64,000 nt of DNA from Betaproteobacteria bacterium. Lineage in GTDB: Bacteria; Pseudomonadota; Gammaproteobacteria; Burkholderiales; Methylophilaceae. Made by a program: the position numbers and the translations under genes. Of the stretch, positions 6,796 through 53,393 are shown piece after piece. Every line of letters starts with the position of its first letter. Within the stretch, counting starts at the first letter, position 1. The notes under the pieces are model-generated. The model ran no database searches and was not told the DNA's origin. It saw only the letters and a program-made list of their open reading frames with translations. The stretch spans positions 8,708 through 72,707 of the forward strand of contig JAHZMC010000021.1 of assembly GCA_022599515.1 (NCBI GenBank), given 5' to 3'.

Positions 6796-8256
<1,461 letters not shown>

Positions 8257-8275
8257 GTTTAATAGAGAGTTAAAA

Positions 8276-8698
8276 ATGGCAAATACAGTTCGTGTTGACG
8301 TAGTAAGCGCAGAAGAGGAAATTTTCTCAGGTCAGGCTGAATTTATTGCAGCACCAGCATCTGCAGGTGAAGTGGGTGTTTATCCACATCACGCGCCGAT
8401 GATTACAACGATTAAACCTGGTGCTTTACGCATTAAATTACCAGATACAGCTGAAGAAACATTAATCTTTATTTCAGGTGGTATGTTAGAAGTGCAACCC
8501 GGTTTGGTCACTGTGCTAGCAGATACAGCGATTCGTGGTCATGATTTAGATGAAGCAAAAGCGTTGGCGGCGAAAGCCGCTGCTGAAGAAGCGATGAAAA
8601 ATAAAGCTTCTGATATGGATTATGCAAAAGCACAAGCCGAATTAGCAGAAGCAGTTGCGCAAATTCAAGCCATTCAAAAGTTACGTAAAACTAACTAA
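8276..8698 (+). CDS. atpC: F0F1 ATP synthase subunit epsilon
   Basis: 140-aa epsilon-like protein and last gene of the operon. Confidence 0.93.
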
Positions 8699-8710
8699 TG
8701 TTTGTCTATT

Positions 8711-8738
8711 AAAAAAGCGGCTTTTAAGCCGCTTTTTT
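8711..8738 (+). terminator. Rho-independent terminator of the atp operon
   Basis: aaaaaaGCGGCttttaaGCCGCtttttt: a GC stem followed by a T6 tract, 13 nt after the atpC stop. Confidence 0.8.
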
Positions 8739-8805
8739 ATTGTCAATATTTTATGTAATGGCTAAAGTCAACGAGTCTAGTAAAAGTAGTAAAATACTAT
8801 TAATT

Positions 8806-10185
8806 ATGCAAAATAAGCCATTAAACATCCTGATTCTCGCTGCTGGTAAAGGCACGCGTATGCATTCTAATCAGCCCAAAGTGTTGCATGAAATTGGTGG
8901 CCAGCCAATCTTGCGGCACGTGATTAACTGTGCCAAACACTTAAATCCGACAAAGATTATTGTGGTTTACGGTTATGGTGGTGAGCAAGTTAAACAAGCC
9001 TTCCAAGATGAGAATATTATTTGGGCAGAGCAAAAAGAGCAGCTAGGCACTGGTCATGCGGTACAGCAAGCATTACCGCATTTAGATAGTGAGTCTAACA
9101 CACTGATACTGCTCGGAGATGTGCCACTAGTGAGTACAGCTGCATGTGAAAAGCTACTTGCACAAGCAGATAATCAATTGATTATTCAATCATTCAAAAA
9201 AACAGATCCAACCGGTTATGGCAGAATTGTGCGTAATGAGCATGGTAAAGTGAATGCCATTGTTGAACAAAAAGATGCGACTACGTCACAGCAAGCGATT
9301 AATGAAGTCAATACAGGCATTATGGCAATGCCAACTAACCATTTATCAATTTGGCTACAGCGATTAACCAATAATAATGCCCAACAAGAATACTATTTAA
9401 CTGATATTGTAGGATTTGCAGTAGCGGATAAAGTTGAGGTGAATGCAGTTACGATTGATGATGAATGGTCTGTGACTGGTATAAACAGTAAGCAAGATTT
9501 AGCGCAGATTGAGCGTGTTTATCAACAGCGTCAAGCTGTAGATTTATTACAAAAAGGCGTTACTCTCTTCGACCCTGCGCGGATTGATATTCGCGGTAAT
9601 GTAGAAACAGCCAAAGACGTTGAAATTGATGTGGGTTGTATTTTTGAAGGTCAAGTAAGCCTAGGTGAAGGCGTAAAAATTGGCGCCTATTGTGTTATTA
9701 AAGATGCCACCATTGCAGCAGGTACTGTGATTGCGCCATTTACGCATATCGTCGAAACAACCATTGGCGAAAATAGCAAAATTGGACCTTATGCCAGATT
9801 GCGACCAGGCACCACATTGGGTAATGAGACCCATGTCGGTAATTTTGTTGAACTTAAGAATGCACAAGTTGATACAGGTAGTAAGATCAATCATCTTAGC
9901 TATGTCGGTGACGCATCGGTAGGTAAACAAGTCAATATTGGTGCAGGAACGATTACGTGCAATTATGATGGCGCCAATAAATTTAGAACAGTGATTGAAG
10001 ACAATGTTTTTGTTGGTTCTGATAGCCAATTGGTTGCACCAGTGACCATTGGTCAAGGTGGCACAATAGCCGCTGGTTCAACCATTACCAAAAACACGCC
10101 GGCAGAAGCATTGACGCTATGCCGAGCCAGAGAGCAAAAATCGATTGCTGGTTGGAAGCGACCAGTTAAAGCAAAGAAAGACTAA
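8806..10185 (+). CDS. glmU: Bifunctional UDP-N-acetylglucosamine pyrophosphorylase / GlcN-1-P acetyltransferase
   Basis: Contains the [11 protein letters not shown] motif and C-terminal hexapeptide repeats. I chose the ATG at 8806 because the ORF-track TTG at 8740 lies inside the atp terminator. Confidence 0.93.
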
Positions 10186-14215: not shown

Positions 14216-14872
14216 TTACTTTTTTGCTGAGGACTGCTTTTTAGCTGTTCGAATATTATTAACAATATAATCAGTTACTTCCAATGCTTGTGTATTGCCG
14301 CCAGCCATGGTGCCAGAAGTAATATATTTACCATCGATAACTAAGCTAGGCACACCCGTTGCACCTGAAGAGCGAAAAACTTGTGCCGCACGTTTTAAGT
14401 TGGCGTTCACTGTGAATGAATTAAATGTTTCCTCTACTTTTTTACGATCTAAACCACTGTTGTTTACAATCCAATTAAGTACCGCTTTTTGGTCAGTTGG
14501 ATTTAATGCTTTTTGCTTATGAATAGCATCAAATAATTTGTCGTGTAATTTCTCGCTAATGCCTAATGCTTCCATCGTGAAATAAGCTTGCGCCATTGGT
14601 GCCCAGCTTGGATTAGGCAAACCAGGCATGCGTTTAAAATTAACATCAGTAGGTAGTTTTTTTAACCAAGCATTAAGTGGTTGTTCCATATGATAACAAT
14701 GTGAACAGCCATACCAAAAAATTTCCATGACTTCGATTTTATTTTTGTCGTCTGTTGGTAATGTTTGTGCGACGGCATCAAATTCTTGCCCTATTTGCGG
14801 TGCAGCCAATAAAGGACTATTTAAACTAACTGCACCTAAAAATAGTGCAAATGAGAGCAACAGTTTTTTCAT
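14216..14872 (-). CDS. dsbA: Thiol:disulfide interchange protein DsbA
   Basis: Signal peptide and a thioredoxin-fold CSHC active site (WYGCSHCYHM). Confidence 0.88.
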   Translation of the reverse strand: MKKLLLSFALFLGAVSLNSPLLAAPQIGQEFDAVAQTLPTDDKNKIEVMEIFWYGCSHCYHMEQPLNAWLKKLPTDVNFKRMPGLPNPSWAPMAQAYFTMEALGISEKLHDKLFDAIHKQKALNPTDQKAVLNWIVNNSGLDRKKVEETFNSFTVNANLKRAAQVFRSSGATGVPSLVIDGKYITSGTMAGGNTQALEVTDYIVNNIRTAKKQSSAKK

Positions 14873-14982
14873 TACTTATCCTAACTTTTTTAATTAAATC
14901 GATTTTAATCAATATCGATGACTAATTGATATAACGTATAACAGACAACAAAAGATGACGATAGATTCACTCGTCATTTTTA

Positions 14983-15561
14983 TTATTCTGCATTCATTTC
15001 AGTTTGCACCTTAATGAGGTCAGCATTAAAGTCGTTGGCTAATAGTTCAGCACGAATTTTATTAATCGCCTCAATATTTTTTAATGGGCCAACACGAACG
15101 CGATGCCATGTGCCCTGCTCTGGAATGGTTGCAGTTTGCACAATGGCTTCAAATCCTTGTAGTGCCAAATTAGCTTTTAAATTATCGGCATCTGCTTCAC
15201 TTTGAAATGATCCAACCTGTAAAAAGTAATTTTCTTTTTTAGTGGTCATATCGGATTGCGAGATTTCTTCTTCTGTTACCGTGCTCTCAGTTTTTGGCAA
15301 AATAGTATAAAAATCAAACTTATCTTCTGGTTTATTTTGCGCCGATGTATTTTCTTCTGTATCCGCATCCGTACTTTCCGTTAGCGGTTCAATTGTCTTA
15401 GACTTACTTTTGTTATCTCGGAACGGGCTGGTATCACCCTGAATATACATGGTTAAGCCAGCGGTTAGAACTACTCCAAGTAAAAAGCCGATAAGAAACC
15501 CAGACAAAAATGGATTGCCACTATTTTCTTTTTTTGACCTTGGTTTGTAATCTCTACTCAT
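14983..15561 (-). CDS. SPOR domain-containing (FtsN/DedD-like) cell-division protein
   Basis: Short cytoplasmic tail, one TM helix, a low-complexity linker and a C-terminal SPOR-like domain (YFLQVGSF...WHRVRVGP). Confidence 0.75.
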   Translation of the reverse strand: MSRDYKPRSKKENSGNPFLSGFLIGFLLGVVLTAGLTMYIQGDTSPFRDNKSKSKTIEPLTESTDADTEENTSAQNKPEDKFDFYTILPKTESTVTEEEISQSDMTTKKENYFLQVGSFQSEADADNLKANLALQGFEAIVQTATIPEQGTWHRVRVGPLKNIEAINKIRAELLANDFNADLIKVQTEMNAE

Positions 15562-15607
15562 ATTCTTTACCCATTACTTTATGTGATTTTAGTTTTATAT
15601 TGAAGGT

Positions 15608-17266
15608 TTACATTTGGTTCGGTGCACTAACACCAAGCAATGCCAATCCATTTTTTAACACGTGTCTTGTCGCGGTGATTAACGCCATGCGCGCCAGTTT
15701 AGTTGACGCATCATCGACCAAGAACTTCGTATCATTGTAATAGCTATGCAATTCACTCGCACATTCTTTTAAGTAATTGGCAATCATGTGTGGCGCCAAA
15801 TCACTCGCTGCATTTTGCACAATGTCAGGAAATTCACTCAGTTTCTGCATAAGGCTGGTTTCACGTGGCGATGTCAGCGCGCTTAAATCGGCTGATGTAA
15901 GCGAAGAAGCATCGCCGCCCCATTGCGCCAACACACTACAAATACGCGCATGCGCATATTGAATGTAATACACAGGATTATCATTGGTTTGCGCGCGAGC
16001 AAGGTCAATATCAAAAGCCAATTGCGAATCTGCGCGACGCGCAGCCAAGAAGTAACGCGTTGCATCACAGCCCACTTCTTCGATTAAGTCACGTAGCGTA
16101 ACATAGCTACCAGCACGTTTAGACAGTTTAACTTCTTCACCACCGCGCATGACGGTCACCATTTGGTGAAGCACATAATCAGGCCAACCTTTTGGAATGC
16201 CGACATTCAATGCCTGCAGGCCAGCTCTCACCCGTGTAATCGTACTGTGGTGATCGGCGCCCTGCTCATTAATCACTTTTGTAAAGCCACGGTTCCATTT
16301 TTCTAAATGGTAGGTAACATCAGGGACAAAATAAGTGTAACCGCCCTCTTGTTTACGCATCACACGGTCTTTGTCATCCTCGAAATCAGTTGTACGCAAC
16401 CAAAGTGCGCCCTCTTCTTCATAGGTGTGACCACTTTTAATCAACGCTTGCACGGTTTCTTCTACTTTGCCGGAGGCATATAATGCGCTTTCTAGTGAAA
16501 ACACATCAAACTGAATTTGGAAGGCACGCAAATCTAAATCTTGTTCATGGCGTAAATAAGCCACACTGAAATGGCGAATAGATTCTAAATCAGCCAAGTC
16601 GCCACTTGCCGTGACTTTAATATCGTCTGCTACAACCGTTTCCTTGGCTAAATAGGCTTTCGCAATATCGGCAATATATTCACCGTGATAACCATTTTCA
16701 GGAAAGCTAGCATCATCTGTCGCAATGCCTTGTGCACGCGCTAATACTGATTTCGTTAGGTTATCAATTTGCGCACCCGCATCGTTATAATAAAACTCAC
16801 GGGTGACATCCCAACCATTGGCTGCCAGCAAACGCGATAAACAATCACCAACGGCAGCGCCGCGACCATGTCCAACATGTAATGGGCCTGTTGGATTAGC
16901 AGAAACAAACTCTACTTGTACCTTTTCACCTTTGCCAGTTTGGTTATGACCATAGTGTTCGCCAGCCTGCAAAATATCCTTTACGATATCGTGTTTTGTA
17001 TTAGCGGCTAAATAGAAATTAATAAATCCAGCACCAGCAACTTCTACTTTCTCAATTTGCGTATTTTTAGGTAGCGCTTGAATCAGTTGCTCTGCGATAG
17101 TACGTGGATTTTGGCGTAAAGGCTTTGCCAATATCATGGCGAGATTGCACGAAAAATCGCCATGATCGGCTGATTTTGGGCGCTCTAAAATAATGTTTAT
17201 ACTGGCAGTATCGGCAACCAAAGTTTTAGCCGCTTGCAGTAATAGGTCTGAGATGATGTCTTTCAA
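15608..17266 (-). CDS. argS: Arginine--tRNA ligase
   Basis: Class I HIGH-type motif ([11 protein letters not shown]) and an ArgRS anticodon-binding C-terminus. Confidence 0.95.
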
Positions 17267-41622: not shown

Positions 41623-43092
41623 TTATTTACCGTCACGCATTTTCTTAAACCAATATTCTAATTGTTTGCCAGCAGCTTCACGACCACCAAGGCCAAATGC
41701 TAGGGCAACGGCTACAGCAACTGAACCAAGGGTTAAGCCAAATGCCATGTTGACGATGTCATCTGCAATGCCCATTGCGCGTAGGCCCATTGCGACCACA
41801 AGGCCGACGATGGCAATGCGGGCGATATTGGCTAGGCCTGTTGATTTTTCGCCGCTTGCACGATCAATTGCATGGTAAGCAAGGTTGGCTAACCAGAAGC
41901 CAATGACTAGAATGACTGAGCCGAGTAGGATATCGCCACCAAACTGAATGAAGATGCTGACAATGTCGCTGACTTCTGAGAAGCCTAAACGATTGGCTGC
42001 TTCCACAGTGGCAAATAACATGGCAAAGAAAATGACGATTTTTCCAACAATGTCAGCGATTGTTGATTTTTTGTTAAATGTTTTTGCATAGCCTAGTTTC
42101 TCAGGCAGCTCGTTAAAACCGATGCTGGTGAGTAGATTGACAATCAGTGCGGCAACAAATTTAGCCACATAATAGGTGATGGTTAATATAACCGCTGCCG
42201 CTAAGATATTGGGCACCGCTTCAAACATCATGGAGAGCATATTGCTGGCTGGCTGAGAAACAGCACTCATTTGTAACGCATCTAAAGCGGCGATTAACGT
42301 TGGAATAAACACAAAGATAAACACCAACATACCAACAACGTTAGATAGTTTAATGGCGTTTTTACCATCCATATCCACTGCTTTTGAAACATTATCAATA
42401 CCGCTGGTTGCTAAAATATTGGTGACTAAACCGCGTAAAATTTTAGCAACAATCCAACCGACAAGTGCGATTACACCACCAGCAAAGATATTAGGAATCA
42501 TGACTAGAAATTCATCTACCATGCCTTGCACGGGTGCTAGTAAGCCGTTGAGTTCGAAGGTGGAAAGTAACGCAGGTAAGAACATTAAAATAATGATCCA
42601 AAACAGCATATTACCAACATTATTGCTCATTGGTTGCATGCCAGCTGCAGCGCTTAGTTTTTCGTCTAACTTGGTCGTTGCTAGTGCTTTAGTGACTATC
42701 AGTCTGACTAAAGTTGCAATTCCCCAAGCAATGGCTAGCAAAATTAATCCCGCAAAAATACGTGGTAAATATTCAAATATTTGCGTCACCATGACATTAA
42801 AAGGTTCAGAAACTGCTTGTAAATTTAAGCTACTAAATACGCCAATTAAAGTAATCAGTAGGATTAGAATAAAAGCGCCAAACGAGATGCCAGAAGCAAT
42901 ATCAACTTCTTGCCCCGTGCTTTCAGAGATTCTTTTGTTAATGCCTATCATGTTTAAAAAGCGGTTTAAGCCAGCGCGAACGAGTACAGCAATCAGCCAA
43001 CCACCTATCAACACAGCAAGCGCTCCAAAAATACCTGGTAGATGTTGACCCAATTGACCCTGCAAACTGTTCACAAGTGTAGAAAAGTCCAT
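41623..43092 (-). CDS. Conserved TM-helix-repeat (CmpX-like, mechanosensitive-channel-related) inner-membrane protein
   Basis: 489-aa polytopic protein made of repeated helix pairs of the type (..GGWIVAKILRGLVTNIL..GID..). Confidence 0.7.
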   Translation of the reverse strand: MDFSTLVNSLQGQLGQHLPGIFGALAVLIGGWLIAVLVRAGLNRFLNMIGINKRISESTGQEVDIASGISFGAFILILLITLIGVFSSLNLQAVSEPFNVMVTQIFEYLPRIFAGLILLAIAWGIATLVRLIVTKALATTKLDEKLSAAAGMQPMSNNVGNMLFWIIILMFLPALLSTFELNGLLAPVQGMVDEFLVMIPNIFAGGVIALVGWIVAKILRGLVTNILATSGIDNVSKAVDMDGKNAIKLSNVVGMLVFIFVFIPTLIAALDALQMSAVSQPASNMLSMMFEAVPNILAAAVILTITYYVAKFVAALIVNLLTSIGFNELPEKLGYAKTFNKKSTIADIVGKIVIFFAMLFATVEAANRLGFSEVSDIVSIFIQFGGDILLGSVILVIGFWLANLAYHAIDRASGEKSTGLANIARIAIVGLVVAMGLRAMGIADDIVNMAFGLTLGSVAVAVALAFGLGGREAAGKQLEYWFKKMRDGK

Positions 43093-43438: not shown

Positions 43439-43495
43439 ATGCATTTTTTGCATGAAATGAAAGAAAGCATAATGGGTTCTATGCAAAATTTGCAG
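43439..43495. promoter_or_regulatory. Paired TGCA-N5-TGCA boxes (candidate enhancer/UAS) upstream of the cptA-like gene
   Basis: ATGCATTTTTTGCAT (43439-43453) and ATGCAAAATTTGCAG (43481-43495), 27 nt apart. They match the two boxes at 45461-45518 at 13/15 and 14/15 positions. Confidence 0.45.
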
Positions 43496-43595: not shown

Positions 43596-43611
43596 TGGTA
43601 TTATCATTGCT
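43596..43611 (+). promoter_or_regulatory. Candidate sigma-54 (-24/-12) promoter of the cptA-like gene
   Basis: TGGTATtatcaTTGCT has GG-N10-GC spacing with TTGCT at -12. It lies 36 nt before the ATG at 43647, 101 nt downstream of the box pair, and is separated from it by an AT-rich tract. Confidence 0.5.
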
Positions 43612-43646: not shown

Positions 43647-45401
43647 ATGCAAACAATCAAGAAACTATTTAACAAGTCACTTTTTAGCAAGCTAGCAATT
43701 AACCCATCATCGTTAATGTCGTTTTTACTCTTTTGGTATCTCACCAGTATCACGCAATTGCTCATTAGTTTATCGGGTGCTGCCTCGTTTGAAGGCTTTA
43801 AAGATGCCACCATTACGGCATTTTTATGGATGATTCCTGTGCTGTTATTTCCGCAGCAGGTAAAAAGAATTACCGCAAGTTTAGGCATTATGCTTTGGCT
43901 ATTTGCGTTGCCTGGCTTTGGTTATTACCTTATTTATCATCAAGAATTAACGCAAAGTTTGATGTTTATTATTTTCGAATCTAATCAATCCGAATCAACC
44001 GAATATTTACAAAATTATTTGTCCATTGGGATTGTTTTAAGCTATATCGCGTTTACCTTAGTGCCTCTTTATATTTGGACAACAATAAAGCCTTATGAAA
44101 GCACAAGAAAACCAGCCAATATCACCAGCTTCATTTTAATAACACTTATTTTTATGACGCCTGTGAAACGTGCAATTCAATATGGTGACATTAATGCAGC
44201 TTATAAAAATTTAAATCGCCATTTGTCAGCGGCGCCGCCATGGCAACTTGGATTTGGCTACAGCAATTATCAGCGAGAGTTAAAAGAAGTCGAAGCACAA
44301 CTGCTCAATTTAAACAAAATTCCAGCGCTCAAAAATTTTACAGAAACGAAAAAAGAACTGCCGACAACAGTTGTGCTGGTGATTGGTGAATCGACGACGC
44401 GCGTACACATGGGCTTGTACGGCTATGGCCGAGACACGACGCCAAAACTTTCTAGCATGAAAGATGAATTAATGGTTTTTGACAATGTATTTGCATCCAG
44501 ACCAAATACGATTGAGAGTTTGGAGCAAGTGCTCACTTTCGCCAATCAAGCCCAGCCTGATTTATATAAAACCACGCCTTCTTTAATCGCCATGATGAAG
44601 CAAGCGGGTTATAAAACCTATTGGATTACCAATCAGCAAACGCTCACACAACGTAATACTATGCTCACCACGTTTGCCAAGCAAGCAGATGAACAGGTGT
44701 TTTTGAATCATGGGCGCCGTCAAAATTCTTATAGTTTTGATGCCAAAGTATTGGCACCATTTGCCGAGAAATTGCTTAAACAAGATGAAAAGAAACTCAT
44801 CATCGTCCATTTGCTCGGTACCCATATGAAGTACGCCTATCGATATCCAGCGGACTACAACTTTTTTAATAATGCAGAAGGTATACCTGAAGTCATTTCT
44901 GCCGATTCTGACAAAGTGACACTGGTGAATGAGTATGATAATGCCGTTCGTTATAACGATTACATTGTGCACGCACTGATTCAACAATTGAAACAATCAA
45001 CTGCAAGTGCTACACAGAGCTTATTGGTTTATTTTTCTGATCATGGAGAAGATGTCTATGACTCGGCGCCACACGCATTTAAAGGGCGCAATGAAGGCGC
45101 GCCAACCTACCCCATGTATGCCGTGCCATTTATCGTATGGCATTCGCCAAACTGGCAAAACGCGCAACAGCTAGCGGATTCTGCAATCCGTCACCGCCAG
45201 TATGATAATGCTGATTTTATTTACACGTGGTCAGATTTAATTGGGCTGACCTACGATGGTTATCGCGCAGATGAAAGTCTTATCAATAACGCATTTGGCG
45301 AAGATACCATCCTAGTAGGCGATCCTTATCATGGCAATTTGCACGTGCTCGATGGCACGATTAAACCAGTGAATCTGCCAGTGAATACGCAGAAAAACTA
45401 G
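43647..45401 (+). CDS. cptA: Phosphoethanolamine transferase, CptA/EptC type (LPS core heptose)
   Basis: Similar along its length to E. coli CptA as I recall it (..VLVIGESTTR..LYGY.R.TTP..., MKQAGYKTYWITNQQT, LIIVHLLGTHMKYAYRYP, YFSDHGE). It has an N-terminal TM domain and a sulfatase-fold domain. Confidence 0.85.
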   Translation: MQTIKKLFNKSLFSKLAINPSSLMSFLLFWYLTSITQLLISLSGAASFEGFKDATITAFLWMIPVLLFPQQVKRITASLGIMLWLFALPGFGYYLIYHQELTQSLMFIIFESNQSESTEYLQNYLSIGIVLSYIAFTLVPLYIWTTIKPYESTRKPANITSFILITLIFMTPVKRAIQYGDINAAYKNLNRHLSAAPPWQLGFGYSNYQRELKEVEAQLLNLNKIPALKNFTETKKELPTTVVLVIGESTTRVHMGLYGYGRDTTPKLSSMKDELMVFDNVFASRPNTIESLEQVLTFANQAQPDLYKTTPSLIAMMKQAGYKTYWITNQQTLTQRNTMLTTFAKQADEQVFLNHGRRQNSYSFDAKVLAPFAEKLLKQDEKKLIIVHLLGTHMKYAYRYPADYNFFNNAEGIPEVISADSDKVTLVNEYDNAVRYNDYIVHALIQQLKQSTASATQSLLVYFSDHGEDVYDSAPHAFKGRNEGAPTYPMYAVPFIVWHSPNWQNAQQLADSAIRHRQYDNADFIYTWSDLIGLTYDGYRADESLINNAFGEDTILVGDPYHGNLHVLDGTIKPVNLPVNTQKN

Positions 45402-45458: not shown

Positions 45459-45520
45459 GCCTGCATTATTTGCATTACCTATAGCATTAGTCTCAATGGA
45501 TGCATGCAAAAGTTGCAGGC
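45459..45520. promoter_or_regulatory. Paired TGCA-N5-TGCA boxes (candidate enhancer/UAS) upstream of the methyltransferase-PAP2-eptA operon
   Basis: GCCTGCAttaTTTGCAT (45459-45475) and ATGCAAAagtTGCAGGC (45504-45520) form a 17-nt imperfect inverted pair (14/17), 28 nt apart. Confidence 0.5.
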
Positions 45521-45604: not shown

Positions 45605-45620
45605 TGGCATGCCGCTTGCT
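45605..45620 (+). promoter_or_regulatory. Candidate sigma-54 (-24/-12) promoter of the methyltransferase-PAP2-eptA operon
   Basis: TGGCATgccgcTTGCT is near-identical to the TGGCAC-N5-TTGCW consensus. It lies 40 nt before the ATG at 45660, with AAGGGA as the RBS. Confidence 0.65.
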
Positions 45621-45659: not shown

Positions 45660-46355
45660 ATGTTTAACCATGCAGGTAAAGCAGAACCGCAAGCCGAAGC
45701 AACATTAGCTTTCTCTAACAAATACGACCAACAACATGCGCAACAATATTTTGAAAAACATGATGATGGTATTTGGCGCAAACTATCCAATTGGCGCGAT
45801 CAGCAAATTGCTAGAAAAGCACTCAAAATAGCGGGCAATCCAAAATCGGTACTTGATACACCCTGCGGCACAGGTCGCTTTTGGGGTGTGCTTGCGGAAA
45901 ATAACAATAGAATTATTCACGCTAGTGATTACAAACAAACCATGATTGATGTTGGCGTGCTTAATCGTCCGCAATCAATCACTAAACGAATCAAACATTT
46001 TCAAGCCTCGGCGTTTGAATTGCCAGTGCCAGATCAATTTGTAGACAGTATTTTTTGCATGCGCTTCATACACCATTTGGGCGAATCTGCAGACAGAGTA
46101 AGGTTGCTAAAAGAGTTTCACCGCGTAACAAAAGAAACAGTGATTATTTCACTTTGGGTTGATGGCAATATCAAAGCAAAAAGAAGGTTGGCACTTGATC
46201 AAAAACGTCCTCCAAAAACGTATCAAAATCGCTTCGTTATTCCAGCTAAAACAATTGAAGAGGAGTTTAGAGCAAACGGATTTACAGTTATTGAAAAGCT
46301 TGATTTTTTAAAGCATTACCATATGTGGCGCACTTATGTAGTGCGTAAAGTCTAA
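45660..46355 (+). CDS. Class I SAM-dependent methyltransferase
   Basis: Motif I VLDTPCGTGRF with downstream motifs. 231 aa and soluble. Confidence 0.8.
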   Translation: MFNHAGKAEPQAEATLAFSNKYDQQHAQQYFEKHDDGIWRKLSNWRDQQIARKALKIAGNPKSVLDTPCGTGRFWGVLAENNNRIIHASDYKQTMIDVGVLNRPQSITKRIKHFQASAFELPVPDQFVDSIFCMRFIHHLGESADRVRLLKEFHRVTKETVIISLWVDGNIKAKRRLALDQKRPPKTYQNRFVIPAKTIEEEFRANGFTVIEKLDFLKHYHMWRTYVVRKV

Positions 46356-46373
46356 AACAGGTATAGTAATAAC

Positions 46374-47069
46374 ATGTTTTCTTTTAAAACGCTCAGAACA
46401 GCACTTTTTGTATTGTTATTCTCAGGTGTATTTTTTGCAGTAATCTCTCAGTTTACCAGCATTGATGTGAACATCGAAGATTACTATTACGACGCTCAGA
46501 AACACCAATTTATTTGGAAAAATAGCTGGTTTGCAAAGCAATTGATGCATACCTATGTCAAAGACGTGATTATCGTATTAGCGCTATTGCTTATCATTGT
46601 TGTAGTGGTCGATATAGGCAAACCAATCAGCAAAATAAGCGCATGGACGCGCATTAGGCTGCGGTTTGTAAGCGTTGCAGCGATTGTTATTCCCTCTTTT
46701 ATCTCTAGCGCAAAACAACTGTCAGTCATGCATTGCCCATGGGATGTTGAGCGCTATGGCGGTGCCGTGCCTTATCTAAGACTATTTGACATGATGCCAG
46801 CGCATATAAAAGCAGGTCATTGCTTTCCCGCAGGACATGCTTCAACAGGCTTGTGGTTGGCGGCATTTTGCGTCTTTTGGTTACCTTACCATCCGCGCAA
46901 GGCATTGCTGGTTTTTTTAGCGGGCTTGGGCGTTGGGTTTGTACTCGGCTGGGTGCAACAAATGCGGGGCGCGCACTTTCTTTCTCACACTTTATGGTCA
47001 GTGTGGATAGCCAGCGCCATTATTCTGCTCATGCTCTGTGTTAGCCAGTCATTCATCAATCGTCATTAA
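46374..47069 (+). CDS. PAP2 superfamily membrane phosphatase (LpxE/PgpB-like)
   Basis: Polytopic protein with PAP2 C2/C3-like motifs (FPAGHAS, MRGAHFLSHTLWS). Adjacent to eptA. Confidence 0.8.
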   Translation: MFSFKTLRTALFVLLFSGVFFAVISQFTSIDVNIEDYYYDAQKHQFIWKNSWFAKQLMHTYVKDVIIVLALLLIIVVVVDIGKPISKISAWTRIRLRFVSVAAIVIPSFISSAKQLSVMHCPWDVERYGGAVPYLRLFDMMPAHIKAGHCFPAGHASTGLWLAAFCVFWLPYHPRKALLVFLAGLGVGFVLGWVQQMRGAHFLSHTLWSVWIASAIILLMLCVSQSFINRH

Positions 47070-47086
47070 TTTTACAGAAACAAGTT

Positions 47087-48730
47087 ATGCTCAATACTCG
47101 CTTTACTAAACTCATCAATTCACAAACAGGCGCTATTTTCTTGGTTGTATTGTTTGTGATGCTTACCGCTAATATGTCGCTCTTTCAGCATATTGTAGAA
47201 ATTTACCCACTCAATCTGCGCAATATCCCGTTTTTAATTTCATTATCTATTTTTTTCAGCTTATTAACGGCTTTGTTTTTCATGGCAATTAGCTTCGGTA
47301 GAAAAGGTCGCTGGCTGATTGCTTTGCTATTAATCATCAGCGCGCAAGCCGCTTATTATATGGATAATTTCGGTGTATTGATGGATAGCGTGATGATAGA
47401 CAATATCATACATACCGACGCTAAAGAGGTGGAAGGTTTAGTGAATGTTGGTATGGTGATGCATCTCTTGTTGCTAGGCGTCTTGCCTGCTTGGTTGGTG
47501 ATTCGATATTGGCCAACAGTGAACAATATCAGTGCTGAGATTAAAACGCGGTTTTTGTGTTTATTGCTATTGATTATTGCACTTGTTGTCGTGGTATTGC
47601 CATTTACGGCGGGTTATACCAGCTTTATCCGTGAACATAAAATCACCCGTTTTTATGCTAATCCTACCTACCCAGTTTATTCATTAATCAAATATGCGCA
47701 ATTACAATTAAAGGACAAACAACAAGCTGACATCACAAAAACGGCAAATGATGCTCAATTTACAGAGGGGAGTATTAAAAATGAATTGGTGATTATGGTT
47801 GTTGGTGAAACCGCGCGAGCGGATAGATTCTCACTCAATGGCTATCACAAAGAGACAAACCCGCGCTTAGCAAAAGAAGATATTGTGAACTTTACCAATG
47901 TGAGTTCATGCGGTACTTCTACTGGCGTTTCAGTTCCGTGTATGTTTTCAGAATTAGGTCGAAAAGACTACGACAAGCAGAAAGCATTAAACCAAGAAAA
48001 TATATTGGATGTGTTAGCGAAAAACGGTATAGAAGTGTTATGGCGTGATAACAATTCAGATTCAAAAGGCGTTGCGACTAGGGTTCAATACGAGGATTTC
48101 AAAACGCCGACTCACAATCCTGTTTGTGAAGGTGAATGCAGAGACATTGGTATGTTGAGTGGGTTGGATGCTTATATAGCTTCTAAAAAAGGCAAAGATA
48201 TCATGATTGTGTTGCATCAAATGGGCAATCATGGCCCTGAATATTATCGCCGCTATCCAAAAGCATTCGCAAAATTTCAACCAATGTGTATGACAGGTGA
48301 ATTAAGAGATTGCACAAAAGAAGAGGTAAATAATAGTTACGATAATGCGATTTTATATACGGATTATTTTTTATCAGAAGTCATTCAATTCTTAAAAAAA
48401 TACGATGACGATTATGAAACGGCGATGTTGTATGTATCTGATCATGGTGAATCGCTAGGTGAAAATGGCGTTTGGTTGCATGCCGCACCTTATATGATGG
48501 CGCCAAAGACGCAAACGCATGTGCCAGCTATTTTGTGGTTAGGACAACACTTTGATTACAACATATCGCAAGCGGAAGTTTATAAAGACGCGCCATTAAG
48601 TCACGATGATTTATTTTGCACCTTACTCATCGCTTATGAGCTGGATGCGAAAACCTGTATTGCAAAAAGAGAGATGCTCATGAATAACTTAGCTATTCAA
48701 GCAGCGTTAACTATTGAGAAAAGGCGATAG
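47087..48730 (+). CDS. eptA: Phosphoethanolamine--lipid A transferase
   Basis: Five N-terminal TM helices and a sulfatase domain with EptA motifs (VVGETARADRFSLNGY, SCGTSTGVSVPCMFS, HQMGNHGPEYYRRYP, VSDHGESLGE). Confidence 0.88.
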   Translation: MLNTRFTKLINSQTGAIFLVVLFVMLTANMSLFQHIVEIYPLNLRNIPFLISLSIFFSLLTALFFMAISFGRKGRWLIALLLIISAQAAYYMDNFGVLMDSVMIDNIIHTDAKEVEGLVNVGMVMHLLLLGVLPAWLVIRYWPTVNNISAEIKTRFLCLLLLIIALVVVVLPFTAGYTSFIREHKITRFYANPTYPVYSLIKYAQLQLKDKQQADITKTANDAQFTEGSIKNELVIMVVGETARADRFSLNGYHKETNPRLAKEDIVNFTNVSSCGTSTGVSVPCMFSELGRKDYDKQKALNQENILDVLAKNGIEVLWRDNNSDSKGVATRVQYEDFKTPTHNPVCEGECRDIGMLSGLDAYIASKKGKDIMIVLHQMGNHGPEYYRRYPKAFAKFQPMCMTGELRDCTKEEVNNSYDNAILYTDYFLSEVIQFLKKYDDDYETAMLYVSDHGESLGENGVWLHAAPYMMAPKTQTHVPAILWLGQHFDYNISQAEVYKDAPLSHDDLFCTLLIAYELDAKTCIAKREMLMNNLAIQAALTIEKRR

Positions 48731-48771: not shown

Positions 48772-49266
48772 TTATTTTTCGCAACTTTGCAGTGACGGTT
48801 TGCTTTTGAGTATCTCGCCACCAGGCATGAGCCAAAATAAGCTTTGAACACGCTCATCCAGATTGCAAGCGTTAACATAACCGATAGCGCCTTTTGTGTT
48901 CGAAACATAGCGCAATACGGCTTCCTCTGAGTTAACAGAATAAGGGGGCAGTATCCCGTTAAAGTATTGACCGTTCCAATAATCAATTTGTGTTTCTGGT
49001 GAGCCACCTAAAACCGCTTCTGAAAATTGTATTCTTACGGCATTTTTCGCATTTAAATTGACGGGTTTAATTTGTATACCTTGCGGCCAAAAAAGTTGCT
49101 TACGCCAATAAATTAAATTTAAATTCTTGGCGCTCAGATTAAGTTCGCTAGCCTTTTGCTGGCTCGAAACAACCACAGCGATAATAGTTTGATTTTCCTT
49201 TGCTAAGGAAAGGCTGGGCAATATCATTGCACTTGCTACAATAAGAAACAAGAAGCGCCTATACAT
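48772..49266 (-). CDS. Small periplasmic PBP-like (PstS-type half-domain) protein
   Basis: Signal peptide and a PBP-like pattern (LNLIYWRKQLFWPQGIQIKPV..., GAIGYV). Its start overlaps the stop of the upstream barrel gene (TAATG). Confidence 0.6.
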   Translation of the reverse strand: MYRRFLFLIVASAMILPSLSLAKENQTIIAVVVSSQQKASELNLSAKNLNLIYWRKQLFWPQGIQIKPVNLNAKNAVRIQFSEAVLGGSPETQIDYWNGQYFNGILPPYSVNSEEAVLRYVSNTKGAIGYVNACNLDERVQSLFWLMPGGEILKSKPSLQSCEK

Positions 49267-50264
49267 TAGAAGAACAATGCAAATGAAGTTAAGAAACCAC
49301 GAGGTGATTCAGGCTGATCTCCGCTGCCACCAGTAAACTCAAACTTTAATAGTTGCGTGGGCTTAATGCGCCAAGTGGCGCCAACTAACCAGCGCTCTGC
49401 CGTTGCTTCATCTGGTCGTTGCAGGGTTTCTACACGGGTAATCCAATACCAATTATTAAAGCCGATTGGCTTTAAAGGCACGGCAGATTGTAGATAGGCG
49501 CCGCTACCGCCATCCTTATTTCTTATATCAAAGCGCTGAAAAAATTCACCACTGACTTCTACCTGTTTAATATGAGTAATAAAGTCTAAGCCAAGCATGC
49601 GGTAACTATTATCAATGCCCTTTTCGCGGAATGATAATATCGAGATGCCAATATCCGATTGATTTTTATAGCTAAATCTGGCCCCTTTTACATGCTCAAA
49701 GGCTAATTCATCTCCATCTTGCTGTTGGTCTTCTAACAATTCAGCAAAGATTTTGTATTCAAATGCACCATTCATAAATGGGGTTGCACCAAAAACCATG
49801 ACACCATTAGTGCCTTCTGGGAAAAGTCTAGAAGTGGCTAATGGACGTGTGCTGGTCCAAACGAGTGGAGGTGCGTGTAAAAGATTCCAGCGGCTATTTG
49901 GGGTTAAAAATCGTCCACCGCGAAAATTGACTTTTTCTGTGATGTTGTAATCTAAGTAAAGCCGCTCTAAATCAAAACGAGATTCCTGGTCGTGAAATTG
50001 CCGCTCATCATTCCAAGATAATGGATTTTCAAGTTCCAGTTCACCAAAAAAACTTAAACGACTATCGCCATTCCATGTCACCAGTAAACTGACTTCATTC
50101 AACGCTGCTTGGGCTTCTTGATCTCTTTCTAATGTCAGGCCAGCACTGGAGTAACCGCCGATATTAAACCCATCAAGCCAGCTAGGTGTATCATCAGCAA
50201 ATACGTGCTTGCACAGACAGAGCAGGCTAGCTAAACTGGTGAATATAATGATAAATTTTTTCAT
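49266..50264 (-). CDS. Uncharacterised outer-membrane beta-barrel (porin-like) protein
   Basis: Signal peptide (..CKHVFA/DD), alternating amphipathic strands and a C-terminal aromatic residue (..SFALFF). Confidence 0.6.
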   Translation of the reverse strand: MKKFIIIFTSLASLLCLCKHVFADDTPSWLDGFNIGGYSSAGLTLERDQEAQAALNEVSLLVTWNGDSRLSFFGELELENPLSWNDERQFHDQESRFDLERLYLDYNITEKVNFRGGRFLTPNSRWNLLHAPPLVWTSTRPLATSRLFPEGTNGVMVFGATPFMNGAFEYKIFAELLEDQQQDGDELAFEHVKGARFSYKNQSDIGISILSFREKGIDNSYRMLGLDFITHIKQVEVSGEFFQRFDIRNKDGGSGAYLQSAVPLKPIGFNNWYWITRVETLQRPDEATAERWLVGATWRIKPTQLLKFEFTGGSGDQPESPRGFLTSFALFF

Positions 50265-50364
50265 ATTGATTTCAATTGTTGGATCTTTAACGCTTACTCT
50301 GCGTAATAAGAAGACCGCGTCAAATGGAATTGTCTCATTACATGCTTAATAAAAGAAATAATCA

Positions 50365-52032
50365 ATGTTAAAAAGATTAAGTATTAAGCAATTATTGTTG
50401 CTGGCCTTTTTGTTAGCGGGCTTGCTGCCGGCGATGTTAGTCAGTTTTTTAAGTTTCTATCAAAGCCGTTCTGTTCTCAAGCAAGAAATTACGCGTGATA
50501 TGCAAACATTGAGCACGGCAGTTGCCAATGATATGGAGCGCATGATGTTTGAACGTTTGCGCAATGTGCAATCATGGAGTCAGCTCTCTATTATGCAAGA
50601 GCTCAAAATTGGGGATATTGATAAACGCTTATCTGTTTTTTTGAATGGTTTAGCACAGAGTTACGGCAATATTTACCATGTCATTTATGTTGAAGATTTG
50701 CAACATAGGGTGATTGCCAGCAGTAATGCTAAGAAAATCGGACTACAAAATCAGCCTCAGCCGCCTTGGTTTTCTGCCAGCTTATCTGGCAGGTCATTAA
50801 GTATTGCTAAAATCAACGGCAATGTTTTAGCGATTTCTGCAGAAATTATTGATGAAACGACCAACATTCCTATGGGTCAGCTTGTGGTCGAATTTAACTG
50901 GGATATCGTGCAAAATGCACTGAATAATGTGATCAAAAAACCAACAGCAGCAGCATTGCTAGATACGAATGGCAATGTGTTGGCGGCGACCTCAAATTGG
51001 GCAGAAATTCATTCTGGATATGGTATGTATGCGATTAGTCAATTTAGTCAGCAATCACCAATGCCCCAATGGCGGGTGCAAGTTGAAAAGCTACACTCCA
51101 TAGCAGTCGCGCCTGTACATAAATTGGGCCATATCTTTTTGGGTTTGTTGGCGGCAACTTTGCTATTGGCCGCGTTAATGGTCAGGCCGATTGCACAAGC
51201 TATTACGCAACCAATCTCGCAATTAACCCAATTTGTAAAAGGTTTTGCGCGACAAACAAAGGCGAAACCGCCACAGTCTGGGCCACCAGAAGTACGTGAG
51301 TTAGTCGCTGCTTTTGAAACGATGACAGAAGATTTAGCCAAGTCGCAAGAAAAGCTAACGCGCGCTGCAAAGCTAGCGGTTGTTGGTGAAATGGCTGCGG
51401 CGATGAGTCATGAAGTGCGCACGCCGCTAGGCATATTACGTTCTTCAGCGGATGTATTAAAGCGCGAAAAAACCTTATCTGACGAAGGTAGAGAAGTGCT
51501 GACGTTTATTGGCGCAGAAACAGAGCGGCTCAATAAATTAGTATCTACTTTAATTGATGCGGCGCGTCCGCGTTTGCCTATTTTTTCTCAGCTTAACTTA
51601 ACAGAATTAATCGCCAATACAGTCGCCATGTTGCGGAATCAAGCGCAGGCAAAACAGATTCATCTGACATTTGATCGCCAAACGCCGACGGTAACCGCAG
51701 CGGTTGATGCAGACCAAATGACGCAAGTCATGATGAATTTAATCATGAATGCAATACAAGTGTTGCCAGAAGGCGGACATATTATGATTGTGTTAGAACA
51801 TATCGGTCATCAAGCGGTGATTCGTGTGGAAGATGATGGCGAAGGGATTAGCGAGGAACATCAGGCGCAGATTTTTGAGCCATTTTTTACTAAACGTGCA
51901 GGCGGTGTTGGTTTGGGATTGGCGGTGGTGCGACAAATTGTATTGGCGCATGGCGGTGAAATTCATTATCAAACCAGCCAAATGCATGGCGCGCAGTTTA
52001 CAATTCTCATTCCAATACAACAGGCAAGTTAA
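50365..52032 (+). CDS. Sensor histidine kinase with a periplasmic (Cache-like) domain, HAMP, HisKA and HATPase domains
   Basis: Two TM segments flank a loop of about 230 aa. H-box (MSHEVRTPL) and N/G boxes (NLIMNAIQ, DDGEGI, GGVGLGLAV) are present. Confidence 0.88.
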   Translation: MLKRLSIKQLLLLAFLLAGLLPAMLVSFLSFYQSRSVLKQEITRDMQTLSTAVANDMERMMFERLRNVQSWSQLSIMQELKIGDIDKRLSVFLNGLAQSYGNIYHVIYVEDLQHRVIASSNAKKIGLQNQPQPPWFSASLSGRSLSIAKINGNVLAISAEIIDETTNIPMGQLVVEFNWDIVQNALNNVIKKPTAAALLDTNGNVLAATSNWAEIHSGYGMYAISQFSQQSPMPQWRVQVEKLHSIAVAPVHKLGHIFLGLLAATLLLAALMVRPIAQAITQPISQLTQFVKGFARQTKAKPPQSGPPEVRELVAAFETMTEDLAKSQEKLTRAAKLAVVGEMAAAMSHEVRTPLGILRSSADVLKREKTLSDEGREVLTFIGAETERLNKLVSTLIDAARPRLPIFSQLNLTELIANTVAMLRNQAQAKQIHLTFDRQTPTVTAAVDADQMTQVMMNLIMNAIQVLPEGGHIMIVLEHIGHQAVIRVEDDGEGISEEHQAQIFEPFFTKRAGGVGLGLAVVRQIVLAHGGEIHYQTSQMHGAQFTILIPIQQAS

Positions 52033-52034
52033 GC

Positions 52035-53393
52035 ATGGACACCCAAAAACGTATTCTCGCAGTTGATGATGAGCCGAATATGCGGCGCTTGCTGGAGATT
52101 AGTTTGCGTCAAGCAGGCTATCAAGCGTTGACCGCCGCCAATGGAAGAGAGGCATTAGAGACCCTCAAAACAGAGCAAGTGGATTTGGTCGTTAGCGATT
52201 TGCACATGCCGGGCATGAGCGGTTTAGAGTTGCTTAAACAAATGCGCGCAGACAGTGATGCCATTCCTTTTATTATGGTAACGGCACAAGGTGAAATTAA
52301 TACCGCAGTTGAGGCGATGAAGTTAGGCGCGGCGGATTATATCTTGCGCCCTTTTGATTTAGAGGTGCTGGAAGTTGCAATTGCCAAAGCTCTAGATATC
52401 CAAAGATTACAGCTTGAAAACACCTATTTAAAATCGACAACGCAACCGATTGTGCAAGGCCTAATTGGCGAAAGTTTAGCGATGCAAACATTGAAGCAAA
52501 TGATCGCACAAGTCGCGCCAGAAAAAGCCACCGTATTAATTGCAGGTGAAACAGGCACAGGTAAAGAGCTTGTTGCAAAAGCCATTCATACCGCCTCGAG
52601 TAGAAAAGACGGTTTATTTGTTGCGGTCAATTGCGCGGCGATACCCGCAGATATGTTGGAATCTGAGTTATTTGGCTATGAAAAAGGCGCTTTCACAGGC
52701 GCAGTTAAAACACGGGTCGGTAAATTTGAATTGGCAGATAAAGGCACACTATTCTTAGATGAAATTACTGAGATGCCTATCCATTTGCAAGCTAAGCTAC
52801 TACGTGCATTGCAAGAAGGTGTAATTGAAAAATTAGGCAGTAATAAACAAATTGCTTTGGATAACCGCATTGTTGCGGCCACCAACCGCGATGCCATGCA
52901 AGCGGTCAAAGATGGTAAGTTGCGAGAAGATTTATATTATCGATTGAATGTATTTCAGTTGAATGTACCCGCCTTAAAAGAACGTACAGGCGATGTGGCT
53001 TTATTAAGTCATTTCTTTTTGGCCAAGCGTGAGGGTGAAGAACGTAGCGCTCAAATAAGTGATGAAGCAATGCAGCAGTTACAACGTTATGATTGGCCTG
53101 GTAATGTGCGTGAGCTAGAAAATGTACTAGAGCGCGCTTCTATATTGTCATCAGGCGGTCAGATTGAAACGCATCATTTGCCGAGTGATATTGTAGGCAA
53201 TACTATCAGCGCAGTAGATAATACGACGCTACAAAATGATTTTTCCATCCCAGCGCAAACACAAAGGCTAGAGAAAAAACTAATCACTGAAGCAATTGAG
53301 CGTTGTAATGGCAATAAAGCAAAAGCAGCCAAATTACTCGAGATTAGTGAACGCTCACTCTGGTATAAGCTAGATCAATACCAACTAAAATAA
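52035..53393 (+). CDS. Sigma-54-dependent response regulator (NtrC-family enhancer-binding protein)
   Basis: REC domain (DDEPNM..D..MPGMSG), an AAA+ domain with GETGTGKE and the GAFTGA loop (EKGAFTGA), and a C-terminal Fis-type HTH. Confidence 0.92.
   Translation: MDTQKRILAVDDEPNMRRLLEISLRQAGYQALTAANGREALETLKTEQVDLVVSDLHMPGMSGLELLKQMRADSDAIPFIMVTAQGEINTAVEAMKLGAADYILRPFDLEVLEVAIAKALDIQRLQLENTYLKSTTQPIVQGLIGESLAMQTLKQMIAQVAPEKATVLIAGETGTGKELVAKAIHTASSRKDGLFVAVNCAAIPADMLESELFGYEKGAFTGAVKTRVGKFELADKGTLFLDEITEMPIHLQAKLLRALQEGVIEKLGSNKQIALDNRIVAATNRDAMQAVKDGKLREDLYYRLNVFQLNVPALKERTGDVALLSHFFLAKREGEERSAQISDEAMQQLQRYDWPGNVRELENVLERASILSSGGQIETHHLPSDIVGNTISAVDNTTLQNDFSIPAQTQRLEKKLITEAIERCNGNKAKAAKLLEISERSLWYKLDQYQLK

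Follow-up and report, generated by a model that had tools for sequence, protein, structure and literature searches.

By what route might a stimulus arriving at the outer membrane of a bacterium come to the notice of a kinase in the inner membrane? The question is raised by a four-gene module at positions 48772–53393 of a 64,000-nucleotide stretch of contig JAHZMC010000021.1 (assembly GCA_022599515.1, positions 8,708 to 72,707 of the forward strand), hereafter the window, which belongs to a Methylophilaceae genome of 1.64 Mb in 87 contigs whose nearest relatives are Methylophilaceae/Methylotenera metagenome-assembled genomes. The module sets genes for a predicted outer-membrane barrel and a small, PstS-like periplasmic-binding-protein relative (mini-PBP) divergently from a dCache histidine kinase and a sigma-54 enhancer-binding protein (EBP). 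We favor, with moderate confidence and on the strength of comparative sequence analysis, the reading in which the kinase is served by a three-part sensory input, with the barrel as its outer-membrane component and the mini-PBP as its periplasmic one. Genomic association is what supports this three-compartment route, which an original prediction had proposed from the letters of the window: the linkage of the genes is conserved, and the barrel and mini-PBP pair with sensors of many different outputs.

The architecture of the locus is compact. On the minus strand lie the mini-PBP gene (48772–49266, 164 residues) and the barrel gene (49266–50264, 332 residues), which overlap by TAATG, base 49266 belonging both to the TAA that ends the barrel gene and to the ATG that opens the mini-PBP gene. 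A 100-bp divergent promoter region (50265–50364) separates them from the plus-strand genes for the kinase (50365–52032, 555 residues) and the EBP (52035–53393, 452 residues), the latter starting 2 nt past the kinase stop. The list of open reading frames thus bears out the coordinates of all four genes in the original prediction, along with the overlap and the 2-nt spacing that it had described. Both minus-strand proteins carry cleavable signal peptides, read from their sequences as ...VFA|DD for the barrel and ...SLA|KEN for the mini-PBP.

The first line of support comes from a survey of gene neighborhoods, which the original prediction had put forward as a check. Scanning species-representative genomes with the barrel alignment yielded 80 Methylophilaceae loci, in 74 of which the mini-PBP gene directly follows the barrel. 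The dCache kinase is divergent from the pair in 73 of these 74 loci and the EBP is present in 66, with the shortfalls in kinase and EBP falling at contig ends. Nor is the linkage confined to one family: five loci from other Burkholderiales families hold all four genes in the same arrangement, with barrels 31–36% and mini-PBPs 40–46% identical, and the genes around them differ, comprising either glycosyltransferases and an ABC exporter or a T_hemolysin/AMP-ligase/short-chain dehydrogenase (SDR) operon. Lack of conserved linkage, which the original prediction had named among the findings that would refute it, is thus decisively contradicted, and adjacency of a binding-protein gene and a sensor gene across genomes, the mark of a binding-protein-dependent sensor, is found both in Methylophilaceae and beyond. 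Some genomes possess two complete, diverged four-gene modules with a PAP2 gene near each (L015/L026, L018/L019, and L011/L024); L015 and L026 occupy one contig, ~15 kb apart.

A second line of support emerges on a wider scale. Members of the mini-PBP family were found in 74 of 401 Burkholderiales genomes and in 59 of 401 Pseudomonadota genomes (~15%), with as many as nine copies in one genome. To describe its neighbors, 40 loci were fetched—20 from Burkholderiales and 20 phylum-wide—and read with home-made domain probes and four Pfam checks. Of the 20 Burkholderiales loci, 16 have a match to the barrel-family hidden Markov model (HMM) next to the mini-PBP gene; in the phylum-wide set the neighbor is mostly a protein of 360–480 residues. 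Among ten such neighbors scanned, three matched Porin_4 above the cut-off and most had no Pfam match. Alignment of 13 neighbors of ~410 residues against the window barrel profile identified them as homologous (hhalign 93%, E 3e-7, 268 columns). At 15 or more of the 20 loci sampled phylum-wide, a sensor adjoins the mini-PBP and completes a trio, and HAMP is present in most of the trio sensors scanned against Pfam. The outputs of these sensors are varied: kinase, hybrid kinase, GGDEF, GGDEF-EAL, SpoIIE-type PP2C phosphatase with HATPase_c_2, and chemoreceptor (MCP). It is this pairing of constant accessory genes with variable output domains that points to an input module. Sensors of nearby trios share the dCache domain of the window kinase (BLASTP 23–30%); a single sensor domain common to all trios was considered and ruled out by the comparison with distant sensors (hhalign 1%). 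In two loci of one family (L123:7385–8632 and L125:7424–8710), the place of a classical sensor after the pair is taken by a BrkB/YihY-type membrane protein that carries a fused cyclic-nucleotide-binding domain.

What kind of proteins are the two accessory components? As modeled, the 332-residue protein is an outer-membrane, porin-like 16-strand barrel. The AlphaFold2 model, built from a 30-sequence alignment (mean predicted local distance difference test, pLDDT, 75), shows the antiparallel 16-strand arrangement expected of general porins, including a long loop that joins strands 5 and 6, and residues 121–150 form a partly helical segment in that loop, the position of the porin constriction loop L3. 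Within the family alignment, the segment at this position, TPNSRWNLLHAPPLVWTSTRPLA, includes a long run of invariant columns. Foldseek matched the model to Omp32, OmpU, OmpF, and chitoporin with probability 1.0 and a TM-score of ~0.5, and the C-terminus reads ...FALFF. The window barrel has no match in Pfam or NCBIfam, and hence no curated porin model recognizes it. Remote relatives gave one Porin_O_P match marginally above the cut-off and otherwise BBP2 or Porin_O_P matches below it; against Porin_4, three trio barrels scored above the cut-off and one below. Over 29 aligned relatives each, identity to the window protein is 65–93% for the barrel versus 52–88% for the mini-PBP. The barrel bears a type I signal peptide and is not a lipoprotein.

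The mini-PBP is the more unusual of the two. The window protein reaches PBP_like_2 (PF12849) with an E-value of 0.0055 and 16.9 bits, below the cut-off of 27, over profile positions 95–192 of 267. Among members of its family 26 of 30 match the same model (best E 2.9e-6), in a tally that gives no bit scores, cut-off status having been checked for the window protein. Firmer evidence comes from a broader family profile, A3, which matches the PstS structures 4exl (1.1e-9), 1twy (1.1e-8), and 4ecf (3.7e-8) in the PDB; the narrow profiles A1 and A2 found nothing significant among PDB sequences, and NCBIfam gave no match to the mini-PBP. Because the A3 match spans PstS residues ~79–216, and thus the second lobe only, the earlier label of a PstS-like half-domain is an accurate one. 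The mature protein, at ~140 residues and ~15 kDa, falls short of the two-lobe Venus-flytrap architecture. It is not a decaying remnant by the look of its alignment, which has 46 invariant columns, and hundreds of homologues have the same length. A pair of cysteines, Cys134 and Cys162, is conserved, and F81, W97, G104, P107, and P108 are invariant across the wide family.

The kinase and activator are, by comparison, conventional. The kinase consists of a transmembrane segment, a periplasmic dCache region, a second transmembrane segment, HAMP, HisKA, and HATPase_c; the stretch between the hydrophobic segments, residues ~32–255, measures ~225 residues, close to the ~230 claimed for it beforehand. 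Within it, dCache_1 scores below the cut-off in the window protein and is matched by 19 of 19 orthologues (best 3e-18), and the periplasmic domain has a weak PDB match to that of RsbU (6mab). The EBP is a complete NtrC/AtoC-type activator with REC, an AAA+ Sigma54_activat domain containing GAFTGA, and a C-terminal HTH_8 (E 1e-71, 1e-31, 2e-14), as well as AAA_lid_14. It is one of only three sigma-54 activators in the genome, where rpoN is also present. Location is the sole basis for taking the remaining two as probably NtrC and PilR: ~4 kb separates one of them from a sigma-54 site preceding a glutamine-synthetase-like gene, and a sigma-54 site also precedes a pilin-like gene. The best NCBIfam match of the kinase core is AtoS (E 1e-57, 196 bits against an equivalog cut-off of 646) and that of the EBP is AtoC (E 7e-142, 473 bits against 714); both scores are far below the cut-offs, ruling out AtoS/AtoC equivalogs.

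Which genes, then, might the activator control? A near-consensus sigma-54 promoter, TGGCATgccgcTTGCT, is located at 45605–45620 on the plus strand, 39 nt upstream of an operon (45660–48730, plus strand) that encodes an S-adenosylmethionine-dependent methyltransferase (45660–46355), a PAP2 lipid A phosphatase (46374–47069), and an EptA phosphoethanolamine–lipid A transferase (47087–48730). This arrangement recurs in relatives, and the operon is convergent with the mini-PBP gene. Two TGCA-N5-TGCA boxes, 43 bp apart (45462–45474 and 45505–45517, plus strand), precede the promoter. A second, weaker sigma-54-type promoter, TGGTATtatcaTTGCT, at 43596–43611 (plus strand) lies 35 nt upstream of a gene for a 584-residue membrane protein of the sulfatase family, phosphoethanolamine-transferase type (43647–45401, plus strand), and is likewise preceded by two boxes, 42 bp apart (43440–43452 and 43482–43494, plus strand). 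Orthologues of this gene in relatives have canonical TGGCAC/T-N5-TTGCT sites.

The boxes are far from commonplace. By motif count, TGCA-N5-TGCA occurs five times in the window against 0.44 expected, and within the genome it is paired solely before the two window promoters. Related loci totaling 1.26 Mb contain 67 strict sigma-54 sites; with two exceptions, the downstream genes that could be named are sulfatase-family, methyltransferase, PAP2, EptA-like, or T_hemolysin genes. A TGCA-N5-TGCA box lies no more than 220 nt upstream of 50 of these 67 sites, against a background of 0.04. The paired boxes are therefore probably binding sites of the EBP, and the methyltransferase–PAP2–EptA operon together with the sulfatase-family gene is its probable regulon, insofar as motifs can tell.

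Relatives show variations on this output. At L006:17528–18166 and at equivalent positions in ~25 loci is a gene for a 212-residue T_hemolysin-family protein (PF12261), equipped with a separate sigma-54 promoter and TGCA boxes. In relatives this gene is oriented divergently to the lipopolysaccharide (LPS) genes, and in other families it heads an AMP-ligase/haem-oxygenase-like/SDR operon adjoining the module. No T_hemolysin gene sits beside the LPS genes of the window (the rest of the window and genome was not searched), where a mechanosensitive-channel-type gene (41623–43092) is found upstream instead. One Methylotenera lineage (L016, L020, L022, and L025, at ~14800–16600) has a sigma-54 promoter before a gene for a distantly EptA-like protein of ~650 residues (26–27% identity), which replaces the methyltransferase gene at the head of a PAP2–EptA operon.

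The sensing genes themselves are a different matter. The original prediction had recognized no sigma-54 promoter in the 100-bp divergent region and had suggested that the barrel/mini-PBP operon may not be a target; both points held, as neither a sigma-54 site nor a TGCA-N5-TGCA box was found between barrel and kinase genes in the window or in the 73 orthologous intergenic regions (0/73). Consequently the sensing genes are not themselves targets, and autoregulation of this region by the EBP was ruled out. The region does hold a conserved element, AATGAGACAAT, within 50290–50345, seen also in the intergenic regions of L002, L004, L007, and L008; in several relatives it belongs to an inverted repeat, ATGAGAC-N17-GTCTCAT, that overlaps a TTGACG hexamer. 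This element may be an operator for some regulator.

Taken together, these parts suggest the following mechanism. Both divergent operons would be expressed without sigma-54, and since they are independent of it the sensing apparatus would probably be always present. A stimulus may enter the periplasm through the porin-like barrel with its invariant L3-region residues, or may act on the barrel itself, and the single-lobe PstS-like protein would then bind the stimulus or relay it to the periplasmic domain of the kinase. The kinase would phosphorylate the NtrC-type activator, which would bind the paired TGCA-N5-TGCA boxes and open the two adjacent sigma-54 promoters. These promoters would drive the methyltransferase–PAP2–EptA operon and the second, phosphoethanolamine-transferase-type gene, leading to remodeling of LPS and lipid A. 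As to the stimulus, our best guess is a metal cation or some other insult to the envelope, the former because of the company kept by a group of barrels described below.

Several observations nonetheless weigh against this proposal for a three-part sensory input. The sensor domains of distant trios have no detectable homology to the window dCache profile (hhalign 1%), which leaves the trios without one conserved docking surface in common. A lone lobe of 140 residues cannot close on a ligand in the manner of two-lobe binding proteins, and this clade seems, tentatively, not to retain the Arg and Ser-Gly-Thr/Ser loop with which lobe 2 of PstS binds its anion: in a short HMMER alignment, the PstS sequence NRAAGSGS faces NLNAKNAV in the window mini-PBP, while other subfamilies keep NREASS. 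AlphaFold2 modeled the mini-PBP poorly (pLDDT 63), and a fold search with the resulting structure was uninformative, giving no match at E < 0.5. No LPS gene is found within the 9-kb flank of 25 of the 74 module loci. Lastly, six barrels lacking both mini-PBP and kinase form one clade (support 100/100) nested within the module barrels, such that the barrel can evidently work without signaling partners. In four of the six (L033, L036, L045, and L048, at ~7390–9990; the other two are L037 and L038), the barrel directly follows an EptA paralogue, and all six loci are in metal-resistance islands with look-alikes of a resistance-nodulation-division CzcA-like pump, a cation-diffusion-facilitator CzcD-like exporter, MgtC, a SIS-domain protein, and a P-type ATPase, neighbors that were named by size and N-terminal sequence. 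It is this metal-resistance and LPS context of the partnerless clade that makes a metal cation the best-guess stimulus, and that keeps two other explanations alive. Within the clade, L045 is labeled as an Ohtaekwangia (Bacteroidota) metagenome-assembled genome, and its barrel groups beside that of Methylotenera L048 on terminal branches of 0.011 and 0.0011, with matching gene order; this contig is probably mis-binned.

One of these explanations casts the pair as a surveillance relay of the YfiBNR or RcsF type. Rather than shuttling a ligand, the mini-PBP would be retained on the barrel or set free from it depending on the condition of the outer membrane or its LPS, and the free form would switch the kinase toward LPS remodeling upon metal loading, loss of divalent cations, or exposure to cationic peptides. 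The conserved trio also fits such a relay, the stop/start overlap suggests joint synthesis of the two proteins, and a single lobe apparently without the PstS anion loop would suit a role other than ligand carriage. Moreover, the conservation of the barrel, exceeding that of the mini-PBP, is unusual for a porin, the output here is LPS modification, and recruitment of a barrel clade beside EptA ties the barrel to LPS chemistry. We nevertheless regard the relay as unlikely. There is no homology to YfiR (no DUF4154), YfiB, or RcsF, the barrel is not a lipoprotein, and the invariant run sits at the L3 position, as would be expected of a substrate-specific pore, while the trios coupled to chemoreceptors are more in keeping with a chemical ligand than with a stress relay. 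A more expansive version, speculative and to our minds improbable, would make barrel and mini-PBP a widespread, undescribed device for surveillance of the outer membrane, in which disturbance of the outer leaflet by metals, loss of divalent cations, or cationic peptides causes a docked mini-PBP to leave the barrel or to switch partner. As part of the same conjecture, the device would inform inner-membrane kinases, cyclic di-GMP enzymes, PP2C phosphatases, or chemoreceptors, and in the window would close a sigma-54 feedback loop onto phosphoethanolamine modification of LPS.

Alternatively, barrel and mini-PBP might be envelope effectors—for example, a metal or anion channel and a periplasmic chaperone acting alongside EptA—that merely share an island with LPS genes and their regulator. 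The partnerless barrels beside an EptA paralogue, among czcA/czcD-like, MgtC-like, and P-type-ATPase-like genes, are in keeping with this notion, as is the presence of an EptA, PAP2, or 584-residue sulfatase-family gene within the 9-kb flank of 49 of the 74 modules. Set against it, the pair lacks the sigma-54 promoter and boxes that mark effector genes (0/73). Other families keep the pair with kinase and EBP even where glycosyltransferase or T_hemolysin/AMP-ligase operons stand in for the LPS genes, and throughout the phylum the pair accompanies sensors of diverse output, with no LPS genes identified nearby. We thus find an effector role quite doubtful. As for the most deflationary account, in which a porin gene and a degenerate PstS fragment sit beside a two-component system by chance, its appeal lies in the failure of either protein to attain a curated family threshold. 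It deserves almost no credence: conserved linkage at 73 loci and in several families refutes a chance adjacency, and the invariant columns of the mini-PBP, the intact signal peptides, and the hundreds of homologues of equal length speak against degeneration.

If a three-part sensory input is the correct reading, it would join an established kind of sensor. Binding-protein-dependent dCache sensors include LuxP/LuxQ, HptA/HptS, NspS/MbaA, ScrB/ScrC, and CBP/ChiS (PMC8050422). The likeness is clear: in these systems a periplasmic protein of the PBP superfamily is encoded beside a dCache-type membrane sensor, and outputs include kinases and GGDEF-EAL proteins (PMC8050422). Their partners, unlike the ~15-kDa single lobe of the window, are two-lobe proteins of 35–60 kDa, and no dedicated outer-membrane barrel gene accompanies them in the operon; the review of these systems never mentions the outer membrane (PMC8050422). 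The output of the window module, sigma-54-driven LPS modification, also sets it apart. TorT/TorS is a further pair of the binding-protein-dependent kind. The LuxQ pathway, too, ends in a sigma-54 activator, LuxO.

Other systems span the envelope in comparable ways. In Vibrio, the chitoporin ChiP is the outer-membrane channel of the ChiP/CBP/ChiS route. Here, as in the window, an outer-membrane channel is combined with a periplasmic binding protein and a dCache-like kinase (for CBP/ChiS, PMC8050422). The route differs in that chiP lies elsewhere and is itself a target, and in that CBP, which belongs to an ABC transporter, is a complete SBP_bac_5 protein, whereas the window barrel and mini-PBP form an operon of their own and are not targets. 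YfiB, YfiR, and YfiN of Pseudomonas aeruginosa are outer-membrane, small periplasmic, and inner-membrane parts that are encoded together and receive an envelope-related input. YfiB, however, is a Pal-like lipoprotein rather than a barrel, and the output of YfiN is cyclic di-GMP. Membership of the window module in this group was ruled out, there being no DUF4154 match even at E up to 1 and the outer-membrane partner being a predicted 16-strand barrel.

The probable output of the module has familiar counterparts of its own. PmrAB, PhoPQ, and ColRS control eptA and arnT, with metal cations as typical signals, and the oprH-phoPQ operon of Pseudomonas couples an outer-membrane barrel gene to such a system. 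These are OmpR-family, sigma-70-dependent regulators, in contrast to the NtrC-family sigma-54 activator of the window, which rules out a PmrAB-type OmpR system. AtoS/AtoC of Escherichia coli, the best NCBIfam matches of the kinase core and EBP, differ in turn: AtoS lacks dCache and has no barrel or PBP partner, and the target is atoDAEB rather than LPS genes. On the evidence of its promoters, the module seems to bring phosphoethanolamine modification of lipid A under the control of sigma-54 in this organism. Literature searches, as judged by the lists of results, gave no report of sigma-54 control of eptA or of a porin/small-PBP/sensor trio and nothing on Methylophilaceae, and a full-text search on sigma-54 control of phosphoethanolamine transferases gave only incidental co-mentions, as judged from titles and abstracts. 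Reviews on sigma-54 (PMC3162934) and on binding proteins in signaling (PMC8050422) mention no such system.

Sensing through periplasmic binding proteins has so far been known only with full two-lobe proteins and without a dedicated outer-membrane partner. Should the pair indeed be an input device, a sensing route could be assigned to many orphan sensors, and the gating of signals at the outer membrane would be brought to light. That EptA-type enzymes are chromosomal relatives of the MCR polymyxin-resistance enzymes lends the output added interest. Measured against binding-protein-dependent sensing as it is currently understood, the module would stand apart in three respects: a ~15-kDa single-lobe partner, a co-encoded barrel gene, and an LPS-modifying output driven by sigma-54.

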